IMG/VR virus record: IMGVR_UViG_2579779052_000002
DNA: 46,256 bases
DNA from: a virus
Taxonomy: Duplodnaviria > Heunggongvirae > Uroviricota > Caudoviricetes
Direction: 5' to 3' (one strand)
Part shown: positions 30,099 through 46,256 of the stretch, piece after piece
Numbering within the stretch: the stretch's first letter is position 1
How the letters are laid out: each line of letters opens with the position of its first letter
Program-made: the position numbers and the translations under genes
Notes under the pieces: generated by a model
What the model saw: only the letters and a program-made list of their open reading frames with translations
The model's database searches: none
What the model was told of the DNA's origin: nothing

Positions 30099-30336
30099 GT
30101 CTTACCTCTCCGTCCTGATTGCGTTGCTGATTGTCCGCGCGGAGTTGAGCCAGCACCTGCTGCATATCCTGTACCCCGGCGCTGATGATATTCAGTGTGT
30201 CGACGGTACTTTTCAGGGTGCTGGCCTGCGCTTCGTTTCTGGCGTTCTCCCGGCCCAGCGACCACGACAGACGCATGGATGTTCCCCATGCGGCAATCAG
30301 AAGGAAAGCGACGCCAAGCGTGGGCCAGAGCTTCAT
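29929..30336 (-). CDS. lysB: i-spanin (P2 LysB-like)
   Basis: Start chosen at ATG 30336 (MKLWPTLGVAFLLIAAWG..., N-terminal TM then coiled coil); ATGA-coupled to the endolysin gene. Confidence 0.65.
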   Translation of the reverse strand: MKLWPTLGVAFLLIAAWGTSMRLSWSLGRENARNEAQASTLKSTVDTLNIISAGVQDMQQVLAQLRADNQQRNQDGEVRREQLRNDIAKDECAHALPDARFTDRLRRHAERATASAVSPAYTADADHAGNASPLP

Positions 30337-30725
30337 GCCGGATAGGCTCCGTGTGGTAACTGAAAATGCGGTCCGTCTTTCAGGGTCTTCCAGTCGCCGC
30401 CCCATTCCACCGGAATATTCAGTTCCCGGCTGGCCTGTCTGAATGCTGCTGCGATTTTTTCGTACAGCGGCCATTCCCATGACACCTGGCTGCCAACATA
30501 AGCCACAACATCCACGGCATGCCCTGTGAGATGGCGACTGTTCATGGTCTGGCTCTTGCCTGTGGTCACGAGCTGCTTCTGACGATAACGACTGCGCAAT
30601 CCTTCGGTGATACCAAAATCCACTTCCGAGATTTCCAGCGCCCGTCGGGTCACTTTCACCAGATCAGGATTTACACCCTGCAAATTCTTTTCGCTTCGGC
30701 TGCTGAATTTAAATGTGTTGCTCAT
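30333..30725 (-). CDS. endolysin, L-alanyl-D-glutamate peptidase (M15 family)
   Basis: 130 aa with HLTGHAVDV zinc-binding-type motif; sits between holin and spanins. Confidence 0.7.
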   Translation of the reverse strand: MSNTFKFSSRSEKNLQGVNPDLVKVTRRALEISEVDFGITEGLRSRYRQKQLVTTGKSQTMNSRHLTGHAVDVVAYVGSQVSWEWPLYEKIAAAFRQASRELNIPVEWGGDWKTLKDGPHFQLPHGAYPA

Positions 30726-31045
30726 TCGTTCCTCTCCTTCACCCTGCGATCAAATATTGCAATAACCTTGTCGCGTGCTTTCTCTGCGCCCATAAAACCG
30801 ATTGAGGCACCAAAAAACGTCACTGCATCCTCAGGGATCCCGAAGAAGCGCAGCGACCCGGCCACGGCCATGGCAAGAACGCCGCACGCCAGCGATCCCG
30901 TTACGGTCTGAACCAGTGTTCGTCCGTCATAAAGACTCATCAGCGCGGAAATGCTGACAGCCGCGCCTACTGCATACACCGTTGGCAGGTGGTCAAAGAG
31001 CCACGCAATAACCTGCTCTGTGATCCCTGTTTGAATGGTGCTCAC
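30722..31045 (-). CDS. holin (P2 Y-like position)
   Basis: GTG start with GGGGGGAG RBS directly after X stop; 107 aa with hydrophobic segments. Confidence 0.6.
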   Translation of the reverse strand: MSTIQTGITEQVIAWLFDHLPTVYAVGAAVSISALMSLYDGRTLVQTVTGSLACGVLAMAVAGSLRFFGIPEDAVTFFGASIGFMGAEKARDKVIAIFDRRVKERNE

Positions 31046-31047
31046 TG

Positions 31048-31248
31048 CTACTCCCCCCACAACTGAATCATTTCTCGTTTCTTCTTCTCCGGCTCCGGCA
31101 TCTCCACTTCCTGCCCGGCGTCCAGAAATACCTGCTGACAGAGTCCGGGGTTGGCATCCAGCACCTTTTCGGTGACGCCCCGTGTCGTGCCGTAGTACCG
31201 GAAACAGAGCGAATCCACGGTGTCGCCTTCCAGTGCCTTCACTTTCAT
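31048..31248 (-). CDS. X: tail protein X (P2 gpX-like)
   Basis: MKVKALEGDTVDSLCFRYYGTTRGVTEKVLDANPGL... matches P2 gpX (MKTFALQGDTLDAICVRYYGRTEGVVETVLAANPGL...) as recalled. Confidence 0.8.
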   Translation of the reverse strand: MKVKALEGDTVDSLCFRYYGTTRGVTEKVLDANPGLCQQVFLDAGQEVEMPEPEKKKREMIQLWGE

Positions 31249-31742
31249 CAGCACAGCTCCGCAAACATTCGCGGTCGTCCCAGAATGTCAGAGATGGCCC
31301 AGCTCACATCGCGCCACAAATCCGATGTCTGTATATCCAGTGCGTCCGCCCGGCGGTCGCCCTTGTCCGTTGTGTCCGCATCGCGGTAACGCTCCAGAAT
31401 CAGGGCGCGTGTGGCGGTATAAACAGCATTGCGCCAGTGCCAGAGATTGACGCTTTCTCCGTTAATTACAGGGGCCGGAACATCGGCCAGCGTCTGATAG
31501 CCAGCCGCCTGTTGTTCCTGCTGCCATGCTTCCAGCTCGCGGGTAACGTGTGCTATGGCCCCGGTGGCGGTATGCAGCAGGCGGGAGGTGGTCACGCGGC
31601 CCGGCAGTCGTACCGCCAGACGCAGCTCACGCAGCACAATATCCGGCCAGAATGCACCCGCTGAAATGCGAGTGTCGCCATCATCGGTATCGGTGATGTC
31701 GTCCTCTGCGGGGCCGGGGTTAGTTCTGGCAACCATACTCAT
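31248..31742 (-). CDS. L: head completion / stabilisation protein (P2 gpL-like)
   Basis: Start chosen at ATG 31742 with AGGAG RBS; similarity to P2 gpL as recalled (EQFWPDV.../AVSEILG). Confidence 0.8.
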   Translation of the reverse strand: MSMVARTNPGPAEDDITDTDDGDTRISAGAFWPDIVLRELRLAVRLPGRVTTSRLLHTATGAIAHVTRELEAWQQEQQAAGYQTLADVPAPVINGESVNLWHWRNAVYTATRALILERYRDADTTDKGDRRADALDIQTSDLWRDVSWAISDILGRPRMFAELC

Positions 31743-31843
31743 GGGGTTCACTCCTGAAAAAATCGGGCGGTGGGTGCGCGGTGTAAACGGTCACGGAGTC
31801 AAACCGGAACACCGCGCACGCCGCCCGCTGACGGGGTCAGTCG

Positions 31844-32644
31844 TTAACCGCGCTTTGCCTTCTGCGTCGCGGTGGTTTTTCGTGTTGCAGGCTTCCGCGT
31901 TGTCTTTTTATTTTTGCTGCTTTCGTCCTGCGCCTGCTGTGCGCTGGCGTCTTCTGGTTCGGCTGCGGAATCGGCTTTTTTCAGGGCGCGGGAAAGGGTT
32001 GCAATCTCGCGTTTCACACCTGCGTTCGGGTTCAGGTGCATCGCTTCGCGCAGCAGCTTCAGTGAAGAGGCCATGTTGTCTGCATCGGTCAGGCCACGAC
32101 GGGCAAAGGCACACGCCTTGCATAATTTGGCGCGCACTTCGTCCGGAATGTCCTGGTTGGCGACAATTTCCCAAAGTGTGTCCAGTGGTTCGATAAAGGC
32201 GGATAAATCCGCGTCGGCATCCGTCCCAGCCTGCGTCAGTACCGGGTTGCAGATTTCTTCGGTCAGTACCGTGGCAGCAGTACGGCCAAAGTTATCCGGC
32301 ATGATGAGGTTGTGACGGACCACATATGCACCAATACGCAGCGCCAGCGGAAGATCGCCGCAGTCAATCGCCCACACCATCAGCGTGGCAATTACTTCGT
32401 CCTGTTGCCCGCCGTCAGCCTCCAGCGTTCCCTCAATCCAGCCGGAAAAGTCCGGCAACAACTCTTTTTTGATGGCGGCTTTCGCGCTTCTGGCCTGTAT
32501 GGCCTTTAGCCTGGCCTGTGCCAGACGCAGACGATACAGCACTTCTTCATGCGCGGTACACGCGGCGTGGTCCACACCTTCATTCGCCCGGCCTGCGCGC
32601 TGTGCCATCACGTTCTGCCAGTGTTGTTGTGCAGGAGTAATCAT
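31844..32644 (-). CDS. M: terminase endonuclease (small) subunit, P2 gpM-like
   Basis: 266 aa with GGAGAG RBS; position between N and L; basic C-terminal tail. Confidence 0.8.
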   Translation of the reverse strand: MITPAQQHWQNVMAQRAGRANEGVDHAACTAHEEVLYRLRLAQARLKAIQARSAKAAIKKELLPDFSGWIEGTLEADGGQQDEVIATLMVWAIDCGDLPLALRIGAYVVRHNLIMPDNFGRTAATVLTEEICNPVLTQAGTDADADLSAFIEPLDTLWEIVANQDIPDEVRAKLCKACAFARRGLTDADNMASSLKLLREAMHLNPNAGVKREIATLSRALKKADSAAEPEDASAQQAQDESSKNKKTTRKPATRKTTATQKAKRG

Positions 32645-32689
32645 TTTTTCTCTCCGTTACAGGCGGGCATGATGCCCGCCGTGAGTTGA

Positions 32690-33742
32690 TTAGCTGTCGG
32701 CGAACTTCAGGCCAGTGACCATCGCGCACTTGCCATAGTCTTCAACGACATAAGCGTCATTGATGGACTGGTAGGTGGCGATGCGGTTGTATTCCGGCTC
32801 GTCTTTCATCAGACGACGCATTGAACCTTTCTGCCAGTAAATCGACAGGTTGTTGAACGAGGTGATAAGCATCGTTGCATCCGGGAAGAACGGCGCAAGG
32901 AACACGCCCAGCCCGCCAATGGTGCGCGATGACAGGATGAGCTGCCCGGCAAGTAATTCCGCATTGGGATTCTGGCCGCTGATGCTGTTCAGCACGGGCA
33001 GACGCAGCGAGTTAAACAGGTTGCGCCCCATAATCACCACGAGGTCGTCAGCTTCCTTGTGCCATTCATCCAGCAGGGATGAGCGCGCATCCTGTACCAG
33101 AGCATCGGCATTCGCATACTTACCCGCGTGCGCCACAGTGTTGTCCATGTTGCGGGAGGTCAGCGTCACGTCATTCATTACGCGCTCGCTGGCATCGGTT
33201 CTGATGTGCTCCAGCCAGCCCACGTTAACGTCCTGAAGCAGCTTGTTGGTGTGAAAATCAGACTCGTAGGCGTGGGATGTGCCGTTAAAGCCAATCATGA
33301 TGCGATCAAGCGCTACCTGCCGGGCGATCTGTGTACTGATACGGGACTGAAAATCGCTGTGGGCCGCCCAGGTATCAAGCTGTGGGTACGAAATAAAGGT
33401 ATCGTAGTTCACCTGTTCGCACTGGTACTGACGAGACTTCATATCGATCACGTTATTCGGGTTACGGCGTTTGATGCCGTCATAACTGCTATTCGTGCGC
33501 GCAATTGGCCCGGTGGTGTCCAGGAGGATTTTTTCGCCTTTCTGGTCGGTCACGCCGATCACGTTAATTCTTTTCGTAAATTCGGTACTTTCCTTTGAGG
33601 CGTTTTCAAAACGCTGCTGCACCGCGGGTTCCACGGTAAATCGCGATACCAGTGCAGATACCGGGATATTGTTAAGCGACGCCTGCTGCGCCATATAGCA
33701 CCCCAGCTTGTTGCGGGTAATATCTGACATCACCAGATTCAT
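32690..33742 (-). CDS. N: major capsid protein, P2 gpN-like
   Basis: 350 aa; KFTVEP, INVIGVTDQKGEK, DLVVIMGRNLF segments align with P2 gpN as recalled; start could instead be ATG 33730. Confidence 0.85.
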   Translation of the reverse strand: MNLVMSDITRNKLGCYMAQQASLNNIPVSALVSRFTVEPAVQQRFENASKESTEFTKRINVIGVTDQKGEKILLDTTGPIARTNSSYDGIKRRNPNNVIDMKSRQYQCEQVNYDTFISYPQLDTWAAHSDFQSRISTQIARQVALDRIMIGFNGTSHAYESDFHTNKLLQDVNVGWLEHIRTDASERVMNDVTLTSRNMDNTVAHAGKYANADALVQDARSSLLDEWHKEADDLVVIMGRNLFNSLRLPVLNSISGQNPNAELLAGQLILSSRTIGGLGVFLAPFFPDATMLITSFNNLSIYWQKGSMRRLMKDEPEYNRIATYQSINDAYVVEDYGKCAMVTGLKFADS

Positions 33743-33765
33743 AAAAAATTTGCTCCTTTGTCTTA

Positions 33766-34602
33766 TCAGAAGTCAGCCAGCTGGTCGGAGGCTGCGCCCG
33801 TTGCGGTGAAGCGGTTCTGCGGATCGCCGTCCTGCGTGCGCAGTTTTTCCTTCAGTGCTGTCAGCTCTGTGGTCAGTGACGTGATTTTCTGGCGGTCCTG
33901 CTGATGGCGGGTTTCCAGCACATTAAAACGGTCGATAATGTCGGCCTGTGATGTTGCAACGCCTTCCACCGCTTCCTGAATACGGGAGAAACTGGCGTCA
34001 TCCGCTTTGCGGCCACGACCAATAATCCCCATTACGCGGTTAAACCACTGGGTGCCTTCTTCCTGGCGTTGTTCTGCCATTTCGATGATTTCAGACTCGA
34101 TGGCTTCGGAGATAAGCGGTGCTTCACCCTGGATACTGTTGAACGTCATCACCGCCTGACGCTGCTGTGCCGTGAATTTCAGGCGCTCAGTGCCCAGGCT
34201 TGCCGGGGTGTCGGTCATCGCCAGCCCGACCAGATAGGCACGCCCGTTAACGGAGAACTGCGGGTGCAGTTCGATACTGGAATAGATTTTCTTGCCGTCA
34301 GCGACAAGCTGCTTCATGCGCTCGGTCGGTTCGATTTCTGCATACAGCGCAGTACGTCCGGCCAGCGGGCCTTCCGTAATATCTTCCGTACTCAGCGCGG
34401 TGACATCGCCCATTGCGGAAAATTCGCTTGACGGGCATGGCGAGAGATAGTGCTCAACGTTCACGCGGGCAGCGTAAACATCCGGGTTGAAGTTCTCGGC
34501 GGCTTCACGCAGATGCACCGGACTGATTTCACGGCCATCAACAGTTGATCCGGAGACAGCCACGCGAAACTTTTTGCGGGATGTCTTTTTTTCATTAGCC
34601 AT
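33766..34602 (-). CDS. O: capsid scaffolding protein, P2 gpO-like
   Basis: Start chosen at ATG 34602 (MANEKKTSRKKFRVAVSGSTVDGREIS...), aligning with P2 gpO N-terminus as recalled. Confidence 0.85.
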   Translation of the reverse strand: MANEKKTSRKKFRVAVSGSTVDGREISPVHLREAAENFNPDVYAARVNVEHYLSPCPSSEFSAMGDVTALSTEDITEGPLAGRTALYAEIEPTERMKQLVADGKKIYSSIELHPQFSVNGRAYLVGLAMTDTPASLGTERLKFTAQQRQAVMTFNSIQGEAPLISEAIESEIIEMAEQRQEEGTQWFNRVMGIIGRGRKADDASFSRIQEAVEGVATSQADIIDRFNVLETRHQQDRQKITSLTTELTALKEKLRTQDGDPQNRFTATGAASDQLADF

Positions 34603-34756
34603 AGTTTTTGCCCCTCTGACTGGTTCTTCAGTCATGATGGCAAAGCGTAACAGGCTGATACAAAGGGATTTTGTTGTAAGAAAACGGCCAGAACAGGGGG
34701 TTAAGGAGAACAGTTTCGCGCGCGGGTAATCTTCCTGTAATTACTCAGGGGGAGCA

Positions 34757-36508
34757 ATGATTCAGGACGCTTTTGTGCGCCAGCGTGCGCGGCAACTTTA
34801 CTGGCAGGGTTATCCGCCCGCAGAAATATCACGTCTGATGGGAATAAACCCGAACACGATTTATGCGTGGAAAAAACGCGACCAGTGGGATGAAACGCCA
34901 CCCGTGCAGCGTGTCACGCAGTCCATCGATGCGCGCCTCATCCAGCTTACTGAAAAACAGAATAAAACAGGCGGTGACTTTAAGGAAATAGACCTGCTGA
35001 CCCGGCAGCTTAAAAAACTGCATGATGGCCAGCCGGATGCGACGGTCACAGGAAAGAAAGGCCGGGCGAAAAAACTCAAAAATCATTTCACGCCGGAACA
35101 GATTGCCGCACTGCGGGAAAAAATCATCAGCAGGCTGGAGTGGCATCAGCGGGGCTGGTTTGACTCCCTGACCCTTTGCAGGGAAGCCGGGATACGTAAC
35201 AGGATGATCCTGAAATCCCGACAGATTGGGGCGACCTGGTATTTTGCACAGGAAGCTCTGCTGATGGCGCTGCGTGACGATGTGGCGCAACCTTACCAGC
35301 GTAACCAGATTTTTTTGTCTGCGTCGCGTCGTCAGGCGTTCCAGTTTAAAAGCATTATTCAGAAGGCCGCGGCTGAAGTTGATGTGGAGCTGAAAGGGGG
35401 CGATAAAATCATCCTCTCCAACGGCGCAGAGCTGCATTTTCTCGGCACTTCTGCTGCGTCGGCACAGTCCTATACGGGCAATTTTTATTTTGATGAATTT
35501 TTCTGGGTCAGTCGCTTTGCTGAACTGCGCAAGGTGGCTGGCGCTATGGCAACCCTCAGCGGACTGCGGCGCACCTACTTCTCCACGCCATCCACCGAAA
35601 CGCACGAGGCATACGCCTACTGGAACGGCGACCGCTGGAACGAGAAAAAGGCCACGCATAAACGCCAGCGTTTTTCTGTGGACTGGAAAACTCTGCATAA
35701 CGGGCTTATCTGCCCTGACCGGACGTGGCGGCAAATTGTCACGCTGGAAGATGTGGTCAATCACGGCTGGAAACACACCGATATCGACGAAATTCGTGAT
35801 GAAAACACCGAAGACGAGTTCCTCAATCTCTATATGTGTGAGTTTGTCCGCGAAGGGGAATCGGCATTTAACCTGAATATCCTGATTGGCTGCGGTGTTG
35901 ACGGATACGACGACTGGAAAGACTGGAAACCTTTTGCTCCCCGCCCGATGGGGAATCGTCCGGTATGGATTGGGTATGACGCAAACGGCAGTAGTGGCAA
36001 CGGCGACAGCGGCGCTGTGTCCGTGGTGGTTCCTCCGGCTGTTCTTGGTGGCCGTTTTCGAACGGTGGAGACGCGACGCGTTCAGGGGCTGGAGTTTGAA
36101 GAACAGGCCAGAGTCATTGAAGAGTTCACGTATCGCTACAACGTGGAACACATCGGCATTGATGTGACGGGCGGGAACGGGGAGGCTGTTTATCAGATAG
36201 TGAAACGGTTTTTCCCTGCTGCTATTCCGTACACCTTCACGCTGTCATCAAAACGGTCGCTGGTACTGAAAATGCTGCAAATAATGCGTGCCGGGCGGTG
36301 GGAATACGATCGCGCCGAACGCGAGCTGGTCGCGGCCTTTAACGCCGTGCGTAAGGTGAAAACACCGGGCGGCTTTATCACTTACGAAACGGACCGCGCG
36401 AGGGGGATCAGCCACGGCGACCTTGCGTGGGCAACCATGCTTGCTGTCATTAACGAACCGATTGGCGGCGAAGGAGAAAACGAGCGTTTCACGGTTATGG
36501 AGTTCTGA
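34757..36508 (+). CDS. P: terminase ATPase (large) subunit, P2 gpP-like
   Basis: 583 aa with GGGGGAG RBS; divergent from O as in P2; ATPase-like region around KSRQIGATWYFA. Confidence 0.9.
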   Translation: MIQDAFVRQRARQLYWQGYPPAEISRLMGINPNTIYAWKKRDQWDETPPVQRVTQSIDARLIQLTEKQNKTGGDFKEIDLLTRQLKKLHDGQPDATVTGKKGRAKKLKNHFTPEQIAALREKIISRLEWHQRGWFDSLTLCREAGIRNRMILKSRQIGATWYFAQEALLMALRDDVAQPYQRNQIFLSASRRQAFQFKSIIQKAAAEVDVELKGGDKIILSNGAELHFLGTSAASAQSYTGNFYFDEFFWVSRFAELRKVAGAMATLSGLRRTYFSTPSTETHEAYAYWNGDRWNEKKATHKRQRFSVDWKTLHNGLICPDRTWRQIVTLEDVVNHGWKHTDIDEIRDENTEDEFLNLYMCEFVREGESAFNLNILIGCGVDGYDDWKDWKPFAPRPMGNRPVWIGYDANGSSGNGDSGAVSVVVPPAVLGGRFRTVETRRVQGLEFEEQARVIEEFTYRYNVEHIGIDVTGGNGEAVYQIVKRFFPAAIPYTFTLSSKRSLVLKMLQIMRAGRWEYDRAERELVAAFNAVRKVKTPGGFITYETDRARGISHGDLAWATMLAVINEPIGGEGENERFTVMEF

Positions 36509-37554
36509 TGAGCAGAAAAAATAAAAAAGTGCGCATGAGTTCACGCATTGATCTCGCTGATGCGCTCAGGAAAGAATCATCGCTCAGTGCATTCACATTT
36601 GATGGTCCTTATCGCCTGACCGGGCATGACCTGCTGGACAATATGTACTGTGCTGATAACGGACGGTGGTATGAAACCCCGGTGGACTGGTACGGTCTGG
36701 CAAGAGCAGCCCGGCAAACGTCCTGGCATCAGTCTGCGCTTTACTTTAAGCGCAATGTATTACTCGGTTGCTACATCCCGCACCCGCTGCTTTCCCGGCA
36801 GGATTTCTCGGCGCTGGCGCTGGACTGGTTTGTGTTCGGTAACGCATTCCTTGAGCTTAGAAGCAATATGCTCGGCGAACCGCTTAAATTACGGCACGCC
36901 CTGGCGAAATACATGCGACGCGGAAGCGATCTTGAATCATGGTGGTATGTGCAGGATGGCAAGGACGCGTTCCAGTTTCGCCCTGGCAAAGTGTGCCACC
37001 TGATGAATCCGGATATTAACCAGGAAATCTACGGCATGCCGGAATATCTTGGCGCATTACTCTCGGCCAGCCTTTCTCATTCGGCGGACATGTTCAGAAA
37101 ACTGTACTACGACAACGGATCCCACGCCGGGTGCATCATCTACATCGGTGCAGCGCAGGTAAACCGCGAAAGCATGGACTCCCTGAAAGAAACGTTACAG
37201 GGCGCGCGTGGTGGTGGTGCGTTTAAAAACGTACTCATCCATGCGCCCAACGGGGGCAAAGAAGGTGTGCAAATTTTGCCGTTCCAGCAGATCACTGCAA
37301 AGGATGAGTTCATGAATGTTAAGGCGGCATCCCGTGATGATGTGCTGGCTGCGCACCGCGTTCCGCCGCAACTGATGGGGGCGATGCCGGGCGAAAAAAG
37401 TGCGTTTGGTGATGTGGAGAAGGCCGCGCGGGTTTACGCAATTAACGAGCTGATGCCCGTCATGGAGGCCATGAAGCACATCAATGACTGGCTTGGCGAA
37501 GAGGTGATCCGCTTTAACCCTTACGCACTGCTAGATACCCAGCCCACATCCTGA
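36508..37554 (+). CDS. Q: portal protein, P2 gpQ-like
   Basis: 348 aa, start overlaps P stop (TGATG); P-Q order as in P2. Confidence 0.9.
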   Translation: MSRKNKKVRMSSRIDLADALRKESSLSAFTFDGPYRLTGHDLLDNMYCADNGRWYETPVDWYGLARAARQTSWHQSALYFKRNVLLGCYIPHPLLSRQDFSALALDWFVFGNAFLELRSNMLGEPLKLRHALAKYMRRGSDLESWWYVQDGKDAFQFRPGKVCHLMNPDINQEIYGMPEYLGALLSASLSHSADMFRKLYYDNGSHAGCIIYIGAAQVNRESMDSLKETLQGARGGGAFKNVLIHAPNGGKEGVQILPFQQITAKDEFMNVKAASRDDVLAAHRVPPQLMGAMPGEKSAFGDVEKAARVYAINELMPVMEAMKHINDWLGEEVIRFNPYALLDTQPTS

Positions 37555-38005
37555 CGCGCTTCGCTTGTCTGCTGCTTCGCCGGGGCATAAAAAATTTATG
37601 CCCCGACTCTCCAGCTCCTGTATCAATCAGATAATTTCACGACGCTTTTCTGCTTATTGTCATCATCGGCGGTCAGACTCTTACGCAATCCCACCGCGTT
37701 GACTGCATGTTCTCGCCGCCTCAGTGCGATTTTGACGGCCTTATCTGCCACCCATCAAATCAAAAGCCCTCACGTCTTTTTCACGCTCAGCGTGAGAAAT
37801 ACAGCCATTCTGTTGTGTCGCTGCGACATCGTTCAGGGGATGCTATTTACCCCCTGAAACGCGGGCTGTTCCCCCGTCACCTGCGCGCAGAAAAAACGCG
37901 TTTTTTTGTGCACGTACGGATCCTTGACGGATCCAGCCACCACGCGGGCCGGAAGTACAAAAAGTCGTTCAAAAAAATTGTGCAAACTTGTGCACTATCG
38001 TGCAA

Positions 38006-38031
38006 ACAAAAAAAGCGCCTTATCGGCGCTT
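38006..38031 (-). terminator. intrinsic terminator after the 38040-38309 gene
   Basis: Minus strand AAGCGCC-GATAA-GGCGCTT followed by TTTTTTTGTTTG. Confidence 0.6.
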
Positions 38032-38039
38032 CAAAAGTA

Positions 38040-38309
38040 TCAATTGTTGCTGTTTATTAATCGCCAACCACGAACATATGCTTCATAGGCATCTCTGTGC
38101 CTTACAGTTCCAGCCTGGCTAAACGGAATGTTAGCTAAAACTAAATCATTCTGAGCCATAGCGCGTCCTTCAAGCGCATCTTTTATGCCTAGCTCAAAAG
38201 CACAGGCAGCGCATTTGTGCCGACCTTCTTGTCCTTGATATTCAGGGAGAGACAGAAATGTTGGATTATAACGATGAGGGTTCTTGCAAATACCTGTTTT
38301 AGCCCGCAC
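38040..38309 (-). CDS. hypothetical protein (89 aa), possible Cys-containing small regulator
   Basis: GTG start with GAGG RBS; followed by a strong terminator; no family recognised. Confidence 0.45.
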   Translation of the reverse strand: MRAKTGICKNPHRYNPTFLSLPEYQGQEGRHKCAACAFELGIKDALEGRAMAQNDLVLANIPFSQAGTVRHRDAYEAYVRGWRLINSNN

Positions 38310-38673
38310 TTTATTTACCTCATAGGAAAAATATGCGTGCCTTTACAGAGGTGCGTGTAAGCAATAAAATATACGACGCACATTTTGATTTACTTCGGAA
38401 GGCACGCATATCAGGTTAAGTGAGTCCGACCGAGTTTTACGCCCCAATAGTTGCTGCTATTGGGGCGTTTTGCATGGACAATGCCGCGCAATTATCTTGT
38501 CGCTCACAATGCGAACGATCTTACAAAAAGGCACATTACTGTCAAGATAATTGATCGTTTTAATCGATAGATAATAGACAATCTATTTGTTTAACAGATC
38601 GATTATTGAAGTAAGTGTGCCAAATGGAATGATACTGTCTCTATAAACGTGAGCATTTTTCGCGCAGATGCTT

Positions 38674-38985
38674 TTACTCAGGAAATAACGCCCGGATATT
38701 CCCAGCCATCTGGCTGGTTATCTTAGCCACTGGTGCAGACTGTGCTTCAAACTTTTTTGAGCTGATTTGTGTCACAGGTAACATCTCATCATCAGCCCAT
38801 GCGGCCAGTCGGTAAGCCTCTGCCGGATTCGTCTTCAGAAGTGCCAGCCCGGCCAGAAAAGCCACGCGTTGGCCGCTTTTGCGGGCTTCTGGTGTAAGGC
38901 TGTCCAGCCAGGCGCATGCTTCTCCTTCGTTCTTGACGGCGGCGGGCTTCAGATAGAAACTTATCCGTCTGGTTGGTGTCGTCAT
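38674..38985 (-). CDS. parR: ParR/StbB-like centromere-binding protein
   Basis: Start chosen at ATG 38985 (MTTPTRRISFYLKPAA...KSGQRVAFLAGLALL), resembling plasmid R1 ParR N-terminal RHH region as recalled; directly downstream of parM. Confidence 0.6.
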   Translation of the reverse strand: MTTPTRRISFYLKPAAVKNEGEACAWLDSLTPEARKSGQRVAFLAGLALLKTNPAEAYRLAAWADDEMLPVTQISSKKFEAQSAPVAKITSQMAGNIRALFPE

Positions 38986-38989
38986 TGGT

Positions 38990-39949
38990 TTACTCCTTGT
39001 CCATTGCGTACAGCCCATTAACCAGAGCAAACTGTGGCACCCCGTCCGCGATGAAAGTCGCATTAACTCCGCAGGCTTCGCGGATAGCGGGTGCCACAAT
39101 CTCCGCCCCGCCACCGACAACCATCACCCGCCCGTAACCCGAAAAAACCGCCAGCGCGCGGATCACGCGTTGTTTCAGTGTTTCTTCCTTTTCACGAATA
39201 ACCGCCATCAGGCTGGCGTAATGCGCGTCATTGTGGATGTGCTGGCGCAGCCAGGCTTCATTATGGCGATGTTCGATAATGGTATTGGCGATGTGGTGAC
39301 TGGTGCGCATACCGTTAGTGGCCATCACCGACAGTACGGCATCGGCCATAAGAGAAACGCCTACGTGTGGATCGCAAAACACCTGGCTGATACCTGCCAG
39401 TTGCCCCTGAACCTTTGCCACATCCAGCGTGGTTCCGCCCAAATCCACAATCAGCAGGGATTCAAACGGACTCATGTCAGCCAGTGCTTTAAAGCCAGCC
39501 GGAATGGATTCAGGCATAACCCGTACGTTACGGATAGTGAATGCTTCGCCGTTCTGGTACTCCACCGGGCGCATGACGTTCGCTTTTTTGCGGTTGATGT
39601 TGGCCATGTCCGGCTGTGCGTTTGTGTCGAAATATTCGCTCAGTGGCAGGGTAACAACCACATCCACTTCCTGTGGCGTGATGTCTGATTTGACCAGCGC
39701 GTGATGAATGGCAATGACATTCACATCGCTGTACTGGTATTGCGTGTCGGTCGTCTGGACAAAGCGATCGCTGACCGGATCAAAACCATAGCGCACGCCA
39801 TCAAGCATGTAGTTAGCAGGCTGCGAGCCACCGAACGGCGCAGACCATTCCGACTTGAAGCTGTTCGGGCTGATGGCGTTGCGGCGTTCGCCGTTCTCAG
39901 TCCATGCCAGCTTGATGTTGGTGGAGCCGTCGTCGATGTAAATTTTCAT
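38990..39949 (-). CDS. parM: ParM/StbA-like actin-fold partition ATPase
   Basis: 319 aa; motifs IDDGSTNIK, MPESIPAG, LIVDLGGTTLDV, VMVVGGGAE match actin-like ParM (R1 StbA) as recalled; AAGGAAAA RBS. Confidence 0.8.
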   Translation of the reverse strand: MKIYIDDGSTNIKLAWTENGERRNAISPNSFKSEWSAPFGGSQPANYMLDGVRYGFDPVSDRFVQTTDTQYQYSDVNVIAIHHALVKSDITPQEVDVVVTLPLSEYFDTNAQPDMANINRKKANVMRPVEYQNGEAFTIRNVRVMPESIPAGFKALADMSPFESLLIVDLGGTTLDVAKVQGQLAGISQVFCDPHVGVSLMADAVLSVMATNGMRTSHHIANTIIEHRHNEAWLRQHIHNDAHYASLMAVIREKEETLKQRVIRALAVFSGYGRVMVVGGGAEIVAPAIREACGVNATFIADGVPQFALVNGLYAMDKE

Positions 39950-39977
39950 GTCGGTTTTCCTTATGTTGATTAATTAA

Positions 39978-40096
39978 TCGTTTACGGGATTCTGAAATCC
40001 CGTTTTTGCCTGTTTTGTGCGCGCTTCATATATCGCTGCGCGTTTTTTGCTCATTTACGGGATTCGTGAGTCCCGTTTCTGTCTGTTTTTTGTTTC
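39978..40096. repeat. two ~45-bp direct repeats (73 bp apart), each with an ACGGGA-loop-TCCCGT hairpin followed by a T-rich tract
   Basis: TTTACGGGATTCTGAAATCCCGTTTTTGCCTGTTTTGT and TTTACGGGATTCGTGAGTCCCGTTTCTGTCTGTTTTTTGT; one copy in the A-parM spacer, one in the last codons of A. Confidence 0.8.
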
Positions 40097-42866
40097 CACT
40101 GGTCAGGCCACCCCGCAGCAGGTCTGCTTTGCGGCTGGCGCGTTCAGTGGTTTCACTGATTCTCTGTGCGTGCTCTGCGTCGCGGATGGCGCGCAGCATG
40201 TCAGAAAGCACGGTAACGGGTGTTTTCATGGTGTTCTGGTCCTGCTGAAGTGTGGATGCCAGGCGTGCGGCGGCTTCAGGGTCTGATGCCCCCAGCTGTG
40301 CCAGATAGCTGGCGACCGGGTTATGGCGGATCTCCGTGCTGCTTACGCCATGATTACGGCTCAGACGCTGCCAGAGCTGCGTGATTCGGCTGTCCGGGCG
40401 GGTATCCGGTTTGCGTACAATTTCAAATCCCTGCGGTGCAATGATGCTGCCGTCAACGTACAGACTGCCGCCCCGTAACAGGTGCTGCATCTGTTGTTCA
40501 CCGATATGCAGGCCGAGAGATTCAGCAGACTCCCGCCATTCTTTAGCGAGTAACTCGTGGTTATCAGGCAAAGGCCGCTGCTGTTTGCGGCTCTGTGTCC
40601 AGTTCTGCATTTCATCGCTGCTGTTTTTTGCCTGTTTGTCACGAAGCGAACGCATCAGCGCCCGGCGTTCGTGCCGTTTCAGTGAGCGCATCCATTCATT
40701 TACTTCAACGCCGTCAGGAAGCTGCGGCCACGGTGCTGGCCGTTCTTCCGGCTGTTCTGTCCCGTTGTTGCCTGTTTCCTGTACACGGGGACAGTTATTG
40801 CCACGAGTCCAAGGGGCGGCAGGGCCGCCCTGAAGGTCAAAACCATTTTCGCGGGCGCTGTCTTCCGCTTCCGGTTTACGTCTTACCAGCTTCCAGTTAT
40901 CCGGATGCGTGCACACACGGGAGGATTCCCCGATGAATGGCGACCAGATCCCGTAAATCTGTACACTCTGTTCGCCGTAATCGTTCAGCTCATCTGCGAG
41001 GTCGTAGGCTGTGCGAATCAGGTAGTCCTTGCGCGGAACAAGTACGCCACCCTGTTTTTCAATGTAGGTGGCAAAACATCCGGCATCAGCGGCAGCGAGT
41101 ACCGCATCCATTGCATCATCCTTCAGCCGTTGTGGGCCTTCCGGGTTGCGTGCCATCTGGCTGGCAAGGCGGCGGAGTTCACGCCATACCTGACGGGAGG
41201 GGATGCCAAAGAACTGGAACTGGCGGACCCGGTGAAGGCGTGCCCAGCCGATGGCGCGTTCCACGCTCTCGGCCATTGATTTTCCGGTTTCGTGGTCAAC
41301 GCGTGGCTTGCCCGTTTTCGGGTCGATGCCATCCACGGCGCGGCTGTCCAGGTTCTTTCCGATGTAGGTGGCGATGTAGCTGGTTGGCGTGCCTTTTGAG
41401 CCGTCGACATACTCCACCTTAAAGCGCGGAGTAATATCATTGCCCAGCTCGTGGCGGTCTTCCTGAATGGCAATATCGCGGGTGTGGGACACAATGGTGT
41501 CGATTTCTTCCGGATGAGCAAAGACCATCATATGCCAGTGCACGGTGCCGTCATGGTGAGGCTCCACCGTGCGGATGCCATACCAGCGCAGGCCGTCGCG
41601 GTTCAGTTTCTTGCGGACCGCCGCAAAAAACGTGTTAACCAGGTAATCGCTGGAGTCGCGCATGGTGGCCCCGTTCCATTTGGGATTCGGATGACCGTTC
41701 TCTGTTGTGGCGTGGTATTTTGACGGGCAGGTGACAGTCAGAAACACCGCTCTGTCGCCACGGGCTTCGGCCAGAAGTTCCAGCCCCTTCATGGTGGCCA
41801 TCATTTCTGCCTTACGGTGAATCGGGTTACTTACTCCCGCGTAATACACTGTCTCGAGATCAATCGTGAACCCGTCTTCGTTTTCCAGCATGAAACTTTT
41901 CAGGAAATCGCGTGTTTTCTCGCGCTGTGCGCGAAACTCGCTTAACGCGTCCTGGCTCAGATAGGGTGATGTTTTTCTGGAAACCAGACAGGCGGCGCGG
42001 AGTTGTTCTTCTCTCCACTCGCAACGTAACAGCCACAGTTTGCGTTTCCACCATTCCGCACAGGTCAGGCGAAGGATTGCGCCCGGCAGCAGCTCCGTGT
42101 CCGGTTCATTCCTCCGGTCTTTGTCTGTTGTCAGAGCGTCATAATGTGGAGGCATAGCGTGCAGGTGTAACGCCATGCGGGCCAGCATCTGATACGCCTT
42201 CAGCGTTACATCCATGGTCAGCTCGCCATCGGTCGCGCCAAAGCCATCGCAGAGTTTTTCAAAAGTGCCACTGAACATCGCCGCCGTCATGGTGGCCAGC
42301 GTCTGTATCTGGTGTTTGTTGAGCTGCGGCAGGTAAAGCAAATCGTCCAGGCGTTCGCGTCCGGCAAGGGAGCGATAGCCCGGTGTCAGCCAGCGGCTGT
42401 CGGTGCGGTCCAGACGTTCGAATATTTTGCGCAGGGTTCCGCGCGCGTAGCGTTCAGCCTGCCAGCTCTTTTTGCCTTTCTGACGATCGGCTTCCTGCTT
42501 CTTGCGCAGAAAAGAGAGGTGGCGGCTCAGAGGTTCACGCAGATAAACGGGAAGCACCTTCAGTGTGGCAAAAGCACGGGCCACCGGGTCTTGTTCTGTT
42601 GCCTGACGCTTGCTGATGATGCTTTGTGCCAGCTTTTCACGCTGTCCGGCTTCCTCAAGGGATGCCATGAGTTTTTTACCCACGGTGGATTGTGCGAAAA
42701 AGGCTTCTTCCTTCGCTTCCTGTTCTTCCTGTGCCCTTTTGTTTGCCTCAAGGTAGTAACGGATGGCGCGTTGCAGGTCGGTTTCAGTTTCCTGCCTGCG
42801 CTCCGTAAATCTGGCCGGATCAATGGCTGGCCGTGGTTCATTCCAGCTCCATGCAAACGCACTCAT
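40026..42866 (-). CDS. A: replication initiation endonuclease (P2 gpA-like, HUH rolling-circle family)
   Basis: HUH motif HWHMMVF and tyrosine motif SYIATYIGK; start set at ATG 42866, ATGA-coupled to the upstream gene (ORF track starts 27 nt earlier). Confidence 0.8.
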   Translation of the reverse strand: MSAFAWSWNEPRPAIDPARFTERRQETETDLQRAIRYYLEANKRAQEEQEAKEEAFFAQSTVGKKLMASLEEAGQREKLAQSIISKRQATEQDPVARAFATLKVLPVYLREPLSRHLSFLRKKQEADRQKGKKSWQAERYARGTLRKIFERLDRTDSRWLTPGYRSLAGRERLDDLLYLPQLNKHQIQTLATMTAAMFSGTFEKLCDGFGATDGELTMDVTLKAYQMLARMALHLHAMPPHYDALTTDKDRRNEPDTELLPGAILRLTCAEWWKRKLWLLRCEWREEQLRAACLVSRKTSPYLSQDALSEFRAQREKTRDFLKSFMLENEDGFTIDLETVYYAGVSNPIHRKAEMMATMKGLELLAEARGDRAVFLTVTCPSKYHATTENGHPNPKWNGATMRDSSDYLVNTFFAAVRKKLNRDGLRWYGIRTVEPHHDGTVHWHMMVFAHPEEIDTIVSHTRDIAIQEDRHELGNDITPRFKVEYVDGSKGTPTSYIATYIGKNLDSRAVDGIDPKTGKPRVDHETGKSMAESVERAIGWARLHRVRQFQFFGIPSRQVWRELRRLASQMARNPEGPQRLKDDAMDAVLAAADAGCFATYIEKQGGVLVPRKDYLIRTAYDLADELNDYGEQSVQIYGIWSPFIGESSRVCTHPDNWKLVRRKPEAEDSARENGFDLQGGPAAPWTRGNNCPRVQETGNNGTEQPEERPAPWPQLPDGVEVNEWMRSLKRHERRALMRSLRDKQAKNSSDEMQNWTQSRKQQRPLPDNHELLAKEWRESAESLGLHIGEQQMQHLLRGGSLYVDGSIIAPQGFEIVRKPDTRPDSRITQLWQRLSRNHGVSSTEIRHNPVASYLAQLGASDPEAAARLASTLQQDQNTMKTPVTVLSDMLRAIRDAEHAQRISETTERASRKADLLRGGLTSGNKKQTETGLTNPVNEQKTRSDI

Positions 42867-43252
42867 GGCTGGTATCCCGTCACGCGCTGCCACTCCTGTG
42901 AGAAGAGGGCGGAAAGGCGGTTAAATTCAGCGGAGTATTCACTCAGCGAGGCACACCCGCCAGCAGTGCGATGCGCCAGCATTGCCGCAAATATGGAGGC
43001 CGGGGAGTCGTAATACGCCAGCAGTGATTCGCCGTGTGGTGTCAGGCAGTGCAACGCCAGCCCGTGTGGTGTGAAGTCCACGCGGTAGCAGTCGTCTACT
43101 GTGAAATAAAGGGTGTCTGCATTCTCCGGTTTTGTGGTGCGTGCTCTGTTGTCACGACCACGGATGTAGAGATCAAATAATCCCTGAAGAACGGGAGCCA
43201 GACGGGTGTCCTGTGTGCGCACCCATCTTGTGAAGTCATGAGCGTCAATCAT
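42863..43252 (-). CDS. hypothetical protein (129 aa), early operon
   Basis: ATG ORF translationally coupled to A. Confidence 0.55.
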   Translation of the reverse strand: MIDAHDFTRWVRTQDTRLAPVLQGLFDLYIRGRDNRARTTKPENADTLYFTVDDCYRVDFTPHGLALHCLTPHGESLLAYYDSPASIFAAMLAHRTAGGCASLSEYSAEFNRLSALFSQEWQRVTGYQP

Positions 43253-43360
43253 GCTGCAATTCTCTTTACTACAGATGTGCGAAGGCTTCCTGCCAAAAAA
43301 CTCAGAAGCGGTCGGTTACAGGAATTGACGTTCTACGAGTAGTTATTGCTGGCTTGAGGT

Positions 43361-43579
43361 TCATTTCTGTTTAATTCCGTGCATGCTGTAGAAGAAATCA
43401 AAAGTGTTATCTATGCGTATCATGAGCTCACGCTGCATCGCTTCTGGTGTTTCTGGTTCGCCTGGTGAGCCAACTCCCGCGAAGAAATCACCGATCTCGC
43501 TTTGAATAAGTGCCTTTAGCGTTGCTGAGGAACTCAGGTGTGTTCGGTGATGTCTGCGAGTGATTCTTCTCCTACTCAT
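43361..43579 (-). CDS. hypothetical protein (72 aa)
   Basis: ATG ORF, ATGA-coupled to the upstream gene. Confidence 0.45.
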   Translation of the reverse strand: MSRRRITRRHHRTHLSSSATLKALIQSEIGDFFAGVGSPGEPETPEAMQRELMIRIDNTFDFFYSMHGIKQK

Positions 43580-43779
43580 TTGCGTGGATCCTGTACCTGT
43601 CGGATAAGATTCACCCGCGCCACATTAGTGGCGCAAAAGTAAGTGCCGTCAGTGAGATAGATGTGGTGTGCATCCTTTTCTGAGCGGTGTTTGTCGATTG
43701 TGGTAATCAGACGTTCGTCGACTTCGTATTCACGTCCTCTGGAGGTGAAACGAACGACAGGAAAATGCTTAATTGCCAT
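43576..43779 (-). CDS. hypothetical protein (67 aa)
   Basis: Start chosen at ATG 43779 with AAGGAGG RBS (ORF track starts at an upstream GTG). Confidence 0.55.
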   Translation of the reverse strand: MAIKHFPVVRFTSRGREYEVDERLITTIDKHRSEKDAHHIYLTDGTYFCATNVARVNLIRQVQDPRK

Positions 43780-43865
43780 TACGCCTCCTTGGTGTGTGTG
43801 AATACCTCTGCGAATGCAGATTGTGTTCACATTTTTTTATTTAAGCTGGGGTTTTATTTATGCGG

Positions 43866-43979
43866 TTATTCGCCAGTGAAAAAGCGTTCAATCTTTTTTA
43901 CTGAATTAATAATTCGCATAATACCAATTGCACAAACCACCGAAATAATAAGAACAATCCAGGATATAAATATACTCAT
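43866..43979 (-). CDS. small hydrophobic peptide (37 aa, single predicted TM)
   Basis: Below ORF-track cutoff; MSIFISWIVLIISVVCAIGIMRIINSVKKIERFFTGE, ATGA-coupled to the upstream gene. Confidence 0.35.
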   Translation of the reverse strand: MSIFISWIVLIISVVCAIGIMRIINSVKKIERFFTGE

Positions 43980-44218
43980 GCGATATTTCCCAGTTTGTAC
44001 GGCTCAATATGCTCCCCGCATTCTGCGGCGCAGATAAGCTCAGAAAGTTCATTAAGCGCATCCAGATCGTCAGCGTAAAAAGCTACGTCATACAGACTCC
44101 GGATAGCCCTGGTCAATGAGTCACGGGCTGCACGTTCTGAATGAGCGCCGGATGCGCTTAAACGAAAATAAAAACGCTCAAGTGCTTTGTTGATGAGAGT
44201 TTTATATTCTTTATCCAT
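43976..44218 (-). CDS. hypothetical protein (80 aa)
   Basis: ATG with AAGGGTG RBS. Confidence 0.5.
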   Translation of the reverse strand: MDKEYKTLINKALERFYFRLSASGAHSERAARDSLTRAIRSLYDVAFYADDLDALNELSELICAAECGEHIEPYKLGNIA

Positions 44219-44229
44219 CGCAACACCCT

Positions 44230-44508
44230 TTAATCTGCTTTCTGAATTTCAGCTTCTGAATCCATGCAGATAATCTCGATATAGGGTTCATCGCCATTAA
44301 CCTGACGAGATTTTTCGGCTTCGCTAATTATTTCGCGAATGATCTGGTACGGAAGCTCTACAGTCAGGCGTGTACCGTTCAGATAAACGTAGGTAGCTGC
44401 GTTTTTTTCAGATGGAACTACTCCGTCAATAGCTGATGCGCGTAATAACAGTTCACCGCGAAAATCAATAAAGCGGATAAATACACCTTGTGCATGGTCT
44501 TTAGTCAT
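44230..44508 (-). CDS. hypothetical protein (92 aa)
   Basis: ATG with AGGTG RBS. Confidence 0.5.
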   Translation of the reverse strand: MTKDHAQGVFIRFIDFRGELLLRASAIDGVVPSEKNAATYVYLNGTRLTVELPYQIIREIISEAEKSRQVNGDEPYIEIICMDSEAEIQKAD

Positions 44509-44518
44509 AAAGCACCTG

Positions 44519-44869
44519 TTATAAAGCAGCCTGTTTAATAAAACTTTGCCCGCGAAGCAGACGATCGACTGTGCGTAGTGCTTCGTACAATGTGAAATCC
44601 TGCCCGAACTGATTATCGCCGCTGCTTAATGCAAAAATGCGGTTTCCGGTAAACGGATTGTGTGGGCATCTGTGAACCACGATTCCAGCTTTCTCAATCA
44701 GCCAGGTGTGTTCGCCGATTTGTTTTACAGCGTGCCCATCTGGTGTTGCGTGCGTCTCGTTCAGGTTATAGCGGCTGTTACTACGTGATGCACTGGTAGC
44801 GACGTGGTGTACATGGCGTTCTACGCCATTACGAAATTTGGAGTATGGATTATTAGTGTTTTTTTTCAT
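44519..44869 (-). CDS. hypothetical protein (116 aa)
   Basis: ATG ORF in early operon; weak RBS. Confidence 0.45.
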   Translation of the reverse strand: MKKNTNNPYSKFRNGVERHVHHVATSASRSNSRYNLNETHATPDGHAVKQIGEHTWLIEKAGIVVHRCPHNPFTGNRIFALSSGDNQFGQDFTLYEALRTVDRLLRGQSFIKQAAL

Positions 44870-44890
44870 GATGATGCTCTGTTCATTGTT

Positions 44891-45094
44891 TTAGCTGTTA
44901 GCCAAAGCGTCTTTTAACATCGCCACAAGGTTTACTTCAGGCTTTTCCATTTTGGCGCGTTTGGGGCGGATAATAATTCGACCGTCAGCCAACATCTTTT
45001 TGCATGTATTAAGAGGGATACCTGTTATCTCTGCATATTTCTGCAGGGATACATAGGGGGCATTCACATTGATATTGATGGTTATACCTGACAT
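44891..45094 (-). CDS. cox: Cox-like HTH excisionase/regulator
   Basis: 67 aa; APYVSLQKYAEITGIPLNTCKKMLADGRI resembles P2 Cox HTH (IPYQEFAKLIGKSTGAVRRMIDKGKL) as recalled. Confidence 0.55.
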   Translation of the reverse strand: MSGITININVNAPYVSLQKYAEITGIPLNTCKKMLADGRIIIRPKRAKMEKPEVNLVAMLKDALANS

Positions 45095-45110
45095 CCCACT
45101 AGCCTCCTGA

Positions 45111-45317
45111 TCAGGAAGATTTGTTTTGTTCTTTCTGGGTTAGCTCTAGGCCGCGAAGGAAGATCATGCGCGCCATGTTAGAGGATGAGCGTTGTTCTTT
45201 AGCTGCCATTTCATCAATGACGGCTCGCTCCTCGAGGGACAGCCGAAGTGCCAGTCTTGGACCTGTGGCGGTGTTACGCGGAATGCGTGATCTGGTATCG
45301 TGAAGAACTTGTTTCAT
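45111..45317 (-). CDS. small ribbon-helix-helix-like regulator, first gene of the early operon
   Basis: 68 aa, RLSLEERAVIDEMAAKEQRSSSNMARMIFLRGLE; no obvious RBS (possibly leaderless); divergent from repressor. Confidence 0.45.
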   Translation of the reverse strand: MKQVLHDTRSRIPRNTATGPRLALRLSLEERAVIDEMAAKEQRSSSNMARMIFLRGLELTQKEQNKSS

Positions 45318-45359
45318 AGTGGTATATTGTGATCATCTAATAGCTCGTGAAATCATTTT

Positions 45360-45377
45360 GGTATCAAAAAAGATACC
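45360..45377. promoter_or_regulatory. candidate operator GGTATC-AAAAAA-GATACC in divergent repressor/early promoter region
   Basis: Perfect 6-bp-arm inverted repeat 15 bp upstream of the repressor ATG; a related half-site GGTATA lies at 45321. Confidence 0.4.
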
Positions 45378-45392
45378 TGTCAAGGTTTTTGT

Positions 45393-45797
45393 ATGAAAAA
45401 TGATATTGGTCAGCGGTTGCGTGAGGAAAGGGAAAGATTGGGACTTAGTCAAGTTGCCATGAGCGACATTGGTGGAGTCAAAAAGCTAACTCAGCTTAGA
45501 TATGAGAAAGGAGATAGCTTTCCTGATGCTGCGTATTTGGCAGCGCTGTCTCGTTTTGGCCTTGATGTTCAGTATGTTGTGTTGGGAATTCACTCACCTG
45601 AAACTTATAACGATGATGAGCAGGAGTTGATTACTCGCTTTCGAGCAGCTTCGTTAGATGTGAAAAACGCGGTGATCGGGGCTTTAAAAGGTGCGATCAG
45701 TGAAAAGGAAACTCAGCCATCAGGACGTGAGTTAAATATTTCTGGTGGTAATAACCGTATCGCTGGTCGTGACTATAACGAAACTAAGGGTAGGTGA
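45393..45797 (+). CDS. XRE-family HTH repressor (immunity repressor candidate)
   Basis: 134 aa; N-terminal HTH (IGQRLREERERLGLSQVAMSDIGGVKKLTQLRYEKGDSFP); divergent from the cox-like operon. Confidence 0.7.
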   Translation: MKNDIGQRLREERERLGLSQVAMSDIGGVKKLTQLRYEKGDSFPDAAYLAALSRFGLDVQYVVLGIHSPETYNDDEQELITRFRAASLDVKNAVIGALKGAISEKETQPSGRELNISGGNNRIAGRDYNETKGR

Positions 45798-45812
45798 TAG
45801 TAGGGAGGTGAC

Positions 45813-45893
45813 ATGGCCGTCAACTCAAACGGTTCAAACAATCGCGTTGCTGGGCGTGATTTTCACGAAAAGAATATTCAGATAGAGCGATAT
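45813..45893 (+). pseudogene. ORF truncated by IS1 insertion
   Basis: ATG 45813 with GGGAGGTG RBS; reads MAVNSNGSNNRVAGRDFHEKNIQIERY then runs into the IS1 left end at 45894. Confidence 0.55.
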
Positions 45894-46256
45894 GGTGATG
45901 CTGCCAACTTACTGATTTAGTGTATGATGGTGTTTTTGAGGTGCTCCAGTGGCTTCTGTTTCTATCAGCTGTCCCTCCTGTTCAGCTACTGACGGGGTGG
46001 TGCGTAACGGCAAAAGCACTGCCGGACATCAGCGCTATCTCTGCTCTCACTGCCGTAAAACATGGCAACTGCAGTTCACTTACACCGCTTCTCAACCCGG
46101 TACGCACCAGAAAATCATTGATATGGCCATGAATGGCGTTGGATGCCGGGCAACCGCCCGCATTATGGGCGTTGGCCTCAACACGATTTTCCGCCATTTA
46201 AAAAACTCAGGCCGCAGTCGGTAACCTCGCGCATACAGCCGGGCAGTGACGTCATC
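45894..46256 (+). mobile_element. IS1 insertion sequence, left end and insA (continues beyond window)
   Basis: GGTGATGCTGCCAACTTACTGATTTAGTGTATGATGGTG matches IS1 left inverted repeat as recalled, followed by insA. Confidence 0.9.
45949..46224 (+). CDS. insA: IS1 transposase InsA
   Basis: 91 aa, [91 protein letters not shown]. Confidence 0.95.

Follow-up and report, generated by a model that had tools for sequence, protein, structure and literature searches.

Comparison of the 46,256-nt stretch of DNA analysed here (the window) with its relatives leads us to conclude that a 37-codon open reading frame (ORF) on its minus strand genuinely codes for a protein of P88-like (Xuanwuvirus, P2-family) Escherichia prophages. 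On balance, we are inclined to see in its product a single-pass inner-membrane microprotein, coupled to DUF4754, that would serve as an early accessory factor by modulating a larger membrane protein. The gene is already known to databases and ordinary as a finding; the present result confirms an already annotated small ORF as a bona fide conserved gene, and its importance is limited.

The P88-like element and its early operon

Over the 2 kb that surround the ORF, the window is 87-91% identical to Xuanwuvirus (P88-like, Peduoviridae) phages, among them P88, 520873 and P884B11, and the corresponding locus of strain E2865 is 99.8% identical to it. The main features of the region are the following:

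45393-45797, plus strand: cI-like (cI-type) repressor gene, divergent from the Pe-like site
45355..45383, minus strand: sigma-70 promoter-like site TTGACA-17-CAAAAT, found by scanning and facing the repressor gene; presumed early promoter Pe
43976..44218, minus strand: DUF4754, the upstream partner gene, 80 aa (PF15946, E 7.5e-54)
43866..43979, minus strand: peptide gene, MSIFISWIVLIISVVCAIGIMRIINSVKKIERFFTGE, 37 codons plus TAA, ATG start
43576..43779, minus strand: next cistron, 67 aa, phrog_3459, starting at ATG 43779 behind a strong Shine-Dalgarno (SD) sequence AAGGAGG; the occupant of this slot varies among relatives

The Pe-like site is the sole sigma-70 promoter-like site that the scan returned on either strand between 43200 and 45500, and no terminator-like site was found between cistrons in the same interval. 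Downstream of it the genes follow each other in the order Arc-like, Cox-like, DUF4761, orf92 (92 aa), DUF4754, peptide, three small ORFs and gpA (955 aa), so that the peptide gene is the sixth cistron. This order matches that of P88, 520873, Sakai Sp13 and EDL933 and, judged by its composition, the gene set is a P2-type early lytic operon. The initial annotation had placed the ORF in an early operon, and the repressor gene, the single divergent Pe-like site and the P2-type gene order through gpA bear this out.

The match of the upstream partner to the DUF4754 profile covers residues 1-80 of 80 and scores 180.4 bits, for a gathering cut-off of 27. Structure prediction yields, with confidence, a bundle of three helices and a C-terminal tail that is flexible; Foldseek searches of PDB and BFVD with this model yielded generic helical-bundle matches only (E > 0.3). 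Sequence searches of PDB found no match for the peptide and DUF4754 profiles, nor for DUF4761 and orf92.

The junction between DUF4754 and the peptide gene

The initial annotation had given the ORF at 43866-43979 as one of 37 aa, whose ATG overlaps the stop of the preceding gene. These limits are exact (37 codons plus TAA), the strand, which had been left unstated, is minus, and the overlap is as described: the ATG (43979-43977) runs over the TGA (43978-43976) of the 80-aa ORF 43976..44218. Two elements define the junction:

43976..43979, minus strand: ATGA overlap of peptide start and DUF4754 stop, indicative of translational coupling; kept in 93/93 loci
43986..43993, minus strand: SD-like sequence CTGGGAAA, inside the 3' end of DUF4754; weak, -4.2 kcal/mol with the anti-SD

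A purine-rich SD element located 7-13 nt upstream of the peptide ATG is retained among relatives and is stronger in the divergent alleles, which carry GAGGAG, GAGGTG or AAGGGG at equal spacing (-7.6 to -8.5 kcal/mol with the anti-SD). It is retained although the DUF4754 codons that overlap it specify different residues between alleles.

We also considered a programmed -1 frameshift that would join DUF4754 to the peptide, and rejected it. The candidate slippery motif, G_GGA_AAT, is present only in a minority of junctions, those of the GGGAAAT type, to which the window belongs (16/93); the other close relatives read G_GGG_AAT (73/93) and the divergent alleles have unrelated sequence at this place.

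Conservation and selection

The comparison was made on 93 DUF4754-anchored loci, drawn from phage records, E. coli, E. albertii and 80 IMG/VR contigs. An ATGA-overlapped ORF is found in all 93, which answers the check on conservation among related elements that had been proposed for it: the ORF encodes 37 aa in 85 loci and 41 aa in 4, and homopolymer frameshifts are found in the other 4, i.e. the product is an intact one of 37 or 41 aa in 89. The ATGA is also kept in divergent loci, five of which were checked beyond the 93 (L089, L093 and L094-L097 are the divergent loci named), and in all 98 loci the DUF4754 and peptide genes are adjacent without exception.

When 39 distinct nucleotide versions are read in six frames, the peptide frame alone is open throughout. 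Its pN/pS is 0.23, as compared to values of 1.46 and 1.00 in the remaining frames of this strand; DUF4754 has a pN/pS of 0.10. Between pairs of divergent alleles pS ranges from 0.48 to 0.76 and pN from 0.18 to 0.27. Within the close clade the signal of selection is moderate, the first, second and third codon positions having 11, 7 and 18 variable sites, respectively. The conservation, the open frame, the pN/pS and the kept SD together indicate that the reading frame is under purifying selection and is not a chance ORF.

The family is a narrow one. Only 10 peptide clusters emerged when 1.84 billion representative proteins were searched exhaustively. A profile search returned 151 proteins and, among the matches listed (120), every named organism is Escherichia; taken as a whole, the range extends beyond Escherichia only to a few records from Shigella, Salmonella and Citrobacter. 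The clusters include three 41-aa alleles (P0065, P0066 and P0068) with 54-68% identity to the window peptide; the gene of each lies in a P2-like early operon, with the same 4-bp spacing to a DUF4754-type gene of 80 aa upstream. Overall, the divergent alleles are 51-68% identical, and the DUF4754 genes that precede them go down to 33-45% identity. Within E. coli the locus is frequent, being found in 1354 of 5426 complete genomes. A 51%-identical copy in phage 503458 was discarded as a divergent allele, since three indels (a 1-nt deletion, a 4-nt deletion and a 1-nt insertion) break it.

Homopolymer frameshifts that alter or remove the last residues are present in 4 of the 93 loci (L026, L065, L066 and L009) and in several database clusters. 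They arise from recurrent indels at two runs within the ORF, T5 at 43880-43884 and A6 at 43892-43897, and they lead either to a variant of 45 aa, with the tail ...KKIERFSLVNN..., or to a product cut to 30 aa. The 45-aa form is no rarity, several of its database clusters numbering dozens of members. Since such alleles persist, the last four residues, or the gene as a whole, seem to be dispensable in some prophages, or else the gene is decaying there.

Recombination has also left its mark at the junction. Two loci, L094 and L095, have an identical 41-aa peptide allele behind DUF4754 alleles that are only 42% identical (junction at locus positions 4001-4004). This mismatch points to a recombination junction in the last bases of DUF4754 and hence to a peptide and spacer that behave as a separate mosaic module.

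A single locus bears a label that departs from the host range given above: NZ_JBQPOM010000071.1 (L007), with a 98%-identical DUF4754 locus, comes from an assembly labelled Vagococcus sp., i.e. a Gram-positive organism. The contig is probably a contaminant or mislabelled.

The predicted product

The peptide divides into two segments, given here by their codons:

43917..43979, minus strand: predicted transmembrane (TM) helix, codons 1-21; uncharged; from hydropathy, alignments and AlphaFold2
43869..43916, minus strand: basic amphipathic tail, codons 22-37; R/K22, I24, K28, I30, E31 and F34-T/S-G/D conserved

Residues 1-21, all uncharged, have a mean Kyte-Doolittle hydropathy of 2.6-2.8 and a summed Hessa dG of -2.7 to -3.4 kcal/mol. 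From residue 22 to residue 37 the peptide is amphipathic (muH 0.75) and its charges are +4/-2. AlphaFold2 models the peptide as a single continuous helix from residue 2 to residue 35 (pLDDT 92.7). In the alignment M1, S6, W7, L10, G19, I23, I24, K28, I30, E31 and F34 are kept across intact alleles, and A17 and R/K22 are nearly invariant. Because kept residues are found in both segments, helix and tail are each likely to carry specific constraints. The single-TM hydrophobic peptide of the initial annotation is thus what the hydropathy of residues 1-21 predicts, and conservation and selection lend support to it. By the positive-inside rule the topology is probably N-out/C-in, with a cytoplasmic tail. 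A lipoprotein was rejected: there is no K or R in residues 1-21, and P0065 and P0068 have Met or Phe at the position of Cys16.

A conserved hairpin downstream of the peptide gene

The 86-nt spacer that follows the ORF (43780-43865) is conserved even where the downstream gene differs. It contains one element:

43805..43821, minus strand: conserved RNA hairpin A-TCTGC-ATTC-GCAGA-GG, with no U-tract

The hairpin is present in a single copy in the window, and the peptide ORF ends 44 nt before it. In most relatives the stem is TCCGC/GCGGA and in others TCCGT/ACGGA, which gives the general pattern TCYGY-N4-RCRGA followed by GG. Across 16 variants, 98.8% of the cells of the 5-bp stem pair, as compared to 36-65% in slid controls. 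Covariation is seen at two pairs, in which both bases have changed in a compensatory way; in two variants there are G.U pairs, workable only on the mRNA strand.

The early-operon terminators annotated in P2 and 186 have a comparable position and are also short hairpins, then followed by GGGC(A)TTC. A GC-rich hairpin is thus found at the operon position equivalent to that of 186 tR1 and of the P2 terminator; it differs from these by having no T-run, the stem being followed by GGUAUUC or GGGCUUC. No U-tract was found after the stem, and the terminator scan made no call on the mRNA strand; a scan of 42800-45900 against Rfam detected no family. The hairpin may be an element of RNA processing, stability or anti-termination.

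Existing annotation and expression data

The initial annotation had also noted that the ORF is below the length cut-off of its ORF list. It is indeed real and short; it had not, however, been overlooked, since P88, Sakai, vB_EcoM-569R5 and PGAP already annotate it. The gene is SF19_gp07 (YP_009113050.1), a 'membrane protein', in phage P88, and ECs_5738, again a 'membrane protein', in prophage Sp13 of the re-annotated E. coli O157:H7 Sakai genome. It is called 'putative membrane protein' in vB_EcoM-569R5, 'hypothetical protein' by PGAP (WP_000021647.1 in strain E2865, WP_000021655.1 in O157:H7) and 'Prophage membrane protein' in UniRef. The annotated homologues of P88, Sakai and PGAP are 89-100% identical to the window gene, have the same 4-bp overlap and lie in the same operon, i.e. 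there is no substantive difference. Gene callers are inconsistent in this respect: the RefSeq record of phage 520873 (NC_049344) misses the ORF and leaves it unannotated.

Searches of Pfam, PHROGs, NCBIfam and PADLOC assigned the peptide to no family, a lone TIGR01218 line (E 0.067) being meaningless. A literature search found no paper on DUF4754 and nothing functional on Xuanwuvirus.

In the Ribo-seq study of Sakai (S2 Table), two neighbours of the ORF in the operon, ECs2622 and ECs2627, have RNA RPKM values of about 24 and 16 and ribosome RPKM values of about 41 and 16, respectively (PMC5597208). The peptide ORF is not among the novel translated genes reported for this lysogen, in which the operon is nearly silent (PMC5597208), and the supplements of the EDL933 translatome contain no entry for it. 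The low signal in Sakai agrees with repression of the operon in the lysogen and is no proof, either way, as to translation in lytic growth.

A possible mode of action

We may propose the following course of events. The peptide gene would be the last cistron of the promoter-proximal early lytic block, and ribosomes finishing DUF4754 would restart at the overlapping ATG, aided by the SD in the DUF4754 3' end. Given that the ORF lacks its own promoter and is located in a lytic operon, the peptide is expected only on infection or induction; it would be made only when Pe fires, in step with DUF4754. The N-terminal helix (residues 1-21) would then span the inner membrane in the N-out/C-in orientation, leaving the basic tail (residues 22-37) in the cytoplasm, and the peptide would bind and modulate a larger inner-membrane protein, as do other very small bitopic membrane proteins. 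The contacts could be provided by a helix face made of S6, W7, L10, A17 and G19 and by the tail motif K28-x-I-E-x-x-F-T-G. In this way the peptide would act on the host cell as an early accessory factor without a structural role.

Such a scheme has parallels. MgrB, AcrZ, MgtS, Blr and CydX are proteins of 30-50 aa that act by binding a larger membrane protein. The peptide resembles them in its size, in its single TM helix and in the binding proposed for it; in contrast, these regulators are chromosomal and individually regulated, whereas the peptide is encoded by a cistron of a phage operon. Family scans and the PDB search detected no homology between them. Small bitopic membrane regulators have been reviewed (PMC12648545).

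Another parallel is provided by gene position. According to the record annotation, phage 186 has in the equivalent slot, just before tR1, two overlapping small cistrons, fil and dhr, for inhibitors of division and replication, and in P2 orf78/B is likewise the last gene before the internal early-operon terminator. The match with fil/dhr lends support to a host-directed role, by position only: Fil and Dhr have no sequence similarity to the peptide and, from their sequences read by eye, are about 66-77 aa long with no membrane segment evident. The role in host takeover or exclusion suggested in the initial annotation is an analogy, if a plausible one. A more specific version can be imagined, in which DUF4761, DUF4754 and the peptide would form an Escherichia-restricted P88-like host-takeover module, the peptide shutting an inner-membrane machine (e.g. 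the divisome, FtsH or a transporter) early in lytic growth as the counterpart of 186 fil/dhr, and the hairpin being a descendant of tR1 that has lost its U-tract and sets, through RNA processing or anti-termination, the expression of the variable genes and gpA. We consider this version rather unlikely. The gene belongs to a P2-family prophage module carried by about a quarter of complete E. coli genomes, O157:H7 Sakai and EDL933 among them. If its function were defined, the annotation of thousands of genomes would gain from it, and it could provide one more example of a phage microprotein with a host membrane target.

Alternative explanations

The constant association of the two genes invites another reading, namely that peptide and DUF4754 are the two subunits of one complex, which the peptide would anchor in the inner membrane; the overlap would ensure equimolar synthesis, and the helical bundle would be tethered through the cytoplasmic tail of the peptide. 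The two genes are never apart in 98 loci, the ATGA persists despite the divergence of DUF4754 to 33-45% identity, and the flexible, conserved C-terminal tail of DUF4754 could be the interaction segment. Nevertheless, the same 41-aa allele is found behind DUF4754 alleles that are 42% identical (L094 and L095), and tolerance of recombination at the junction argues against a tightly co-evolved interface. Nor is there a clean natural fusion of the two proteins: database 'DUF4754' proteins of 103-128 aa, which could have been taken for such fusions, turned out to be frameshifted reads through the wrong frame. We thus regard an anchor as an improbable reading, if one that deserves some weight. It is more doubtful still that what matters is the act of translation alone, i.e. 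that ribosomes are kept on the message up to the hairpin, for instance against Rho-dependent polarity or so as to set the folding of the spacer RNA. The end of the ORF 44 nt ahead of the conserved hairpin would agree with this, as would the persistence of 45-aa frameshift alleles in which the translation stop is shifted. But purifying selection acts at the amino-acid level (pN/pS 0.23), and specific residues are kept across alleles that differ by 0.5-0.8 at synonymous sites, so that of all the explanations considered this is the one to which we give the least credit.

Two further possibilities concern the effect of the peptide on the cell, and we hold each of them to be quite unlikely. One is that it damages the membrane in the manner of a type I toxin or a holin, by depolarising or permeabilising it and thereby stopping host metabolism or aborting the infection. 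Toxins of the Fst/Ldr type are small and have an N-terminal TM helix and a charged tail, and translation of Hok is coupled to an overlapping frame; the size and architecture of the peptide resemble those of Fst/Ldr-type toxins and, as in Fst, Ldr and Hok, a small hydrophobic helix is followed by a charged C-terminal tail. Moreover, type I toxins borne by prophages are known (PMC12648545). In contrast to these toxins, the peptide gene lacks its own promoter and any known antisense RNA, there being no promoter-like site near the ORF on either strand, and it is embedded in a long operon instead of standing alone or in a lysis cassette; in addition, the ORF is intact in most of very many prophage copies. 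A type I toxin proper was rejected for want of an sRNA promoter (Pe is the only site in 43200-45500) and of an Rfam family, and a holin, antiholin or spanin because the flanking genes are DUF4754 and small early ORFs, upstream of gpA, and not an endolysin. The other possibility is that of a superinfection-exclusion or lysogenic-conversion factor protecting the lysogen. It goes back to the analogy, drawn in the initial annotation, with small membrane proteins such as T4 Imm, which blocks DNA entry. The conversion genes of P2-type phages, old, tin and fun, are however located elsewhere, and the ORF lies within a repressor-controlled lytic operon, with neither promoter nor terminator of its own. 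Besides, ECs2622 and ECs2627 give very low RNA and ribosome signals in the Sakai lysogen (PMC5597208). The missing promoter and the near silence of the operon disfavour exclusion by the lysogen, and a conversion or exclusion moron, which should have a promoter and terminator of its own and be expressed in the lysogen, was rejected; exclusion taking place during lytic growth may still be compatible with the data.

Other features of the window

The window joins two kinds of phage DNA: a lambdoid late region (1-30000), with genes for tail fibre, J, tape measure, capsid and a NanS-like esterase, and a P2-like prophage (30000-46000) in which head, terminase, portal, gpA and early operon are kept and the tail genes are absent. 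Judging from this gene content, the P2-like element is probably a truncated prophage like Sakai Sp13 and, as a consequence, the window copy of the peptide gene may never be expressed. A ParM-like segregation gene (38990-39949) is located between the portal gene and gpA.

At the right end of the window, from 45949-46224 (plus strand) onward, an IS1 element (InsA domains, E 1e-30) is inserted beside the repressor gene; strain E2865 has a gene for a 'membrane protein' at this place. The database peptide P0070 is the same 37-aa protein in a truncated form with an altered C-terminal tail (...GDAANLLI). This tail matches that of the window ORF 45813..45920, which ends where the IS1 insertion begins, and P0070 may thus reflect the insertion.

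Finally, annotations conflict at 45111-45317. The minus strand has a 68-aa ORF with a match to the PHROG 'Arc-like repressor' (E 1e-28), the name under which it is annotated in phage 520873. At the same place PGAP calls an ORF of 45 aa on the opposite strand (WP_001673482.1 in E2865, O157:H7 PV15-279 and EDL933), which is also listed in the Sakai record (L004, 3136-3273).
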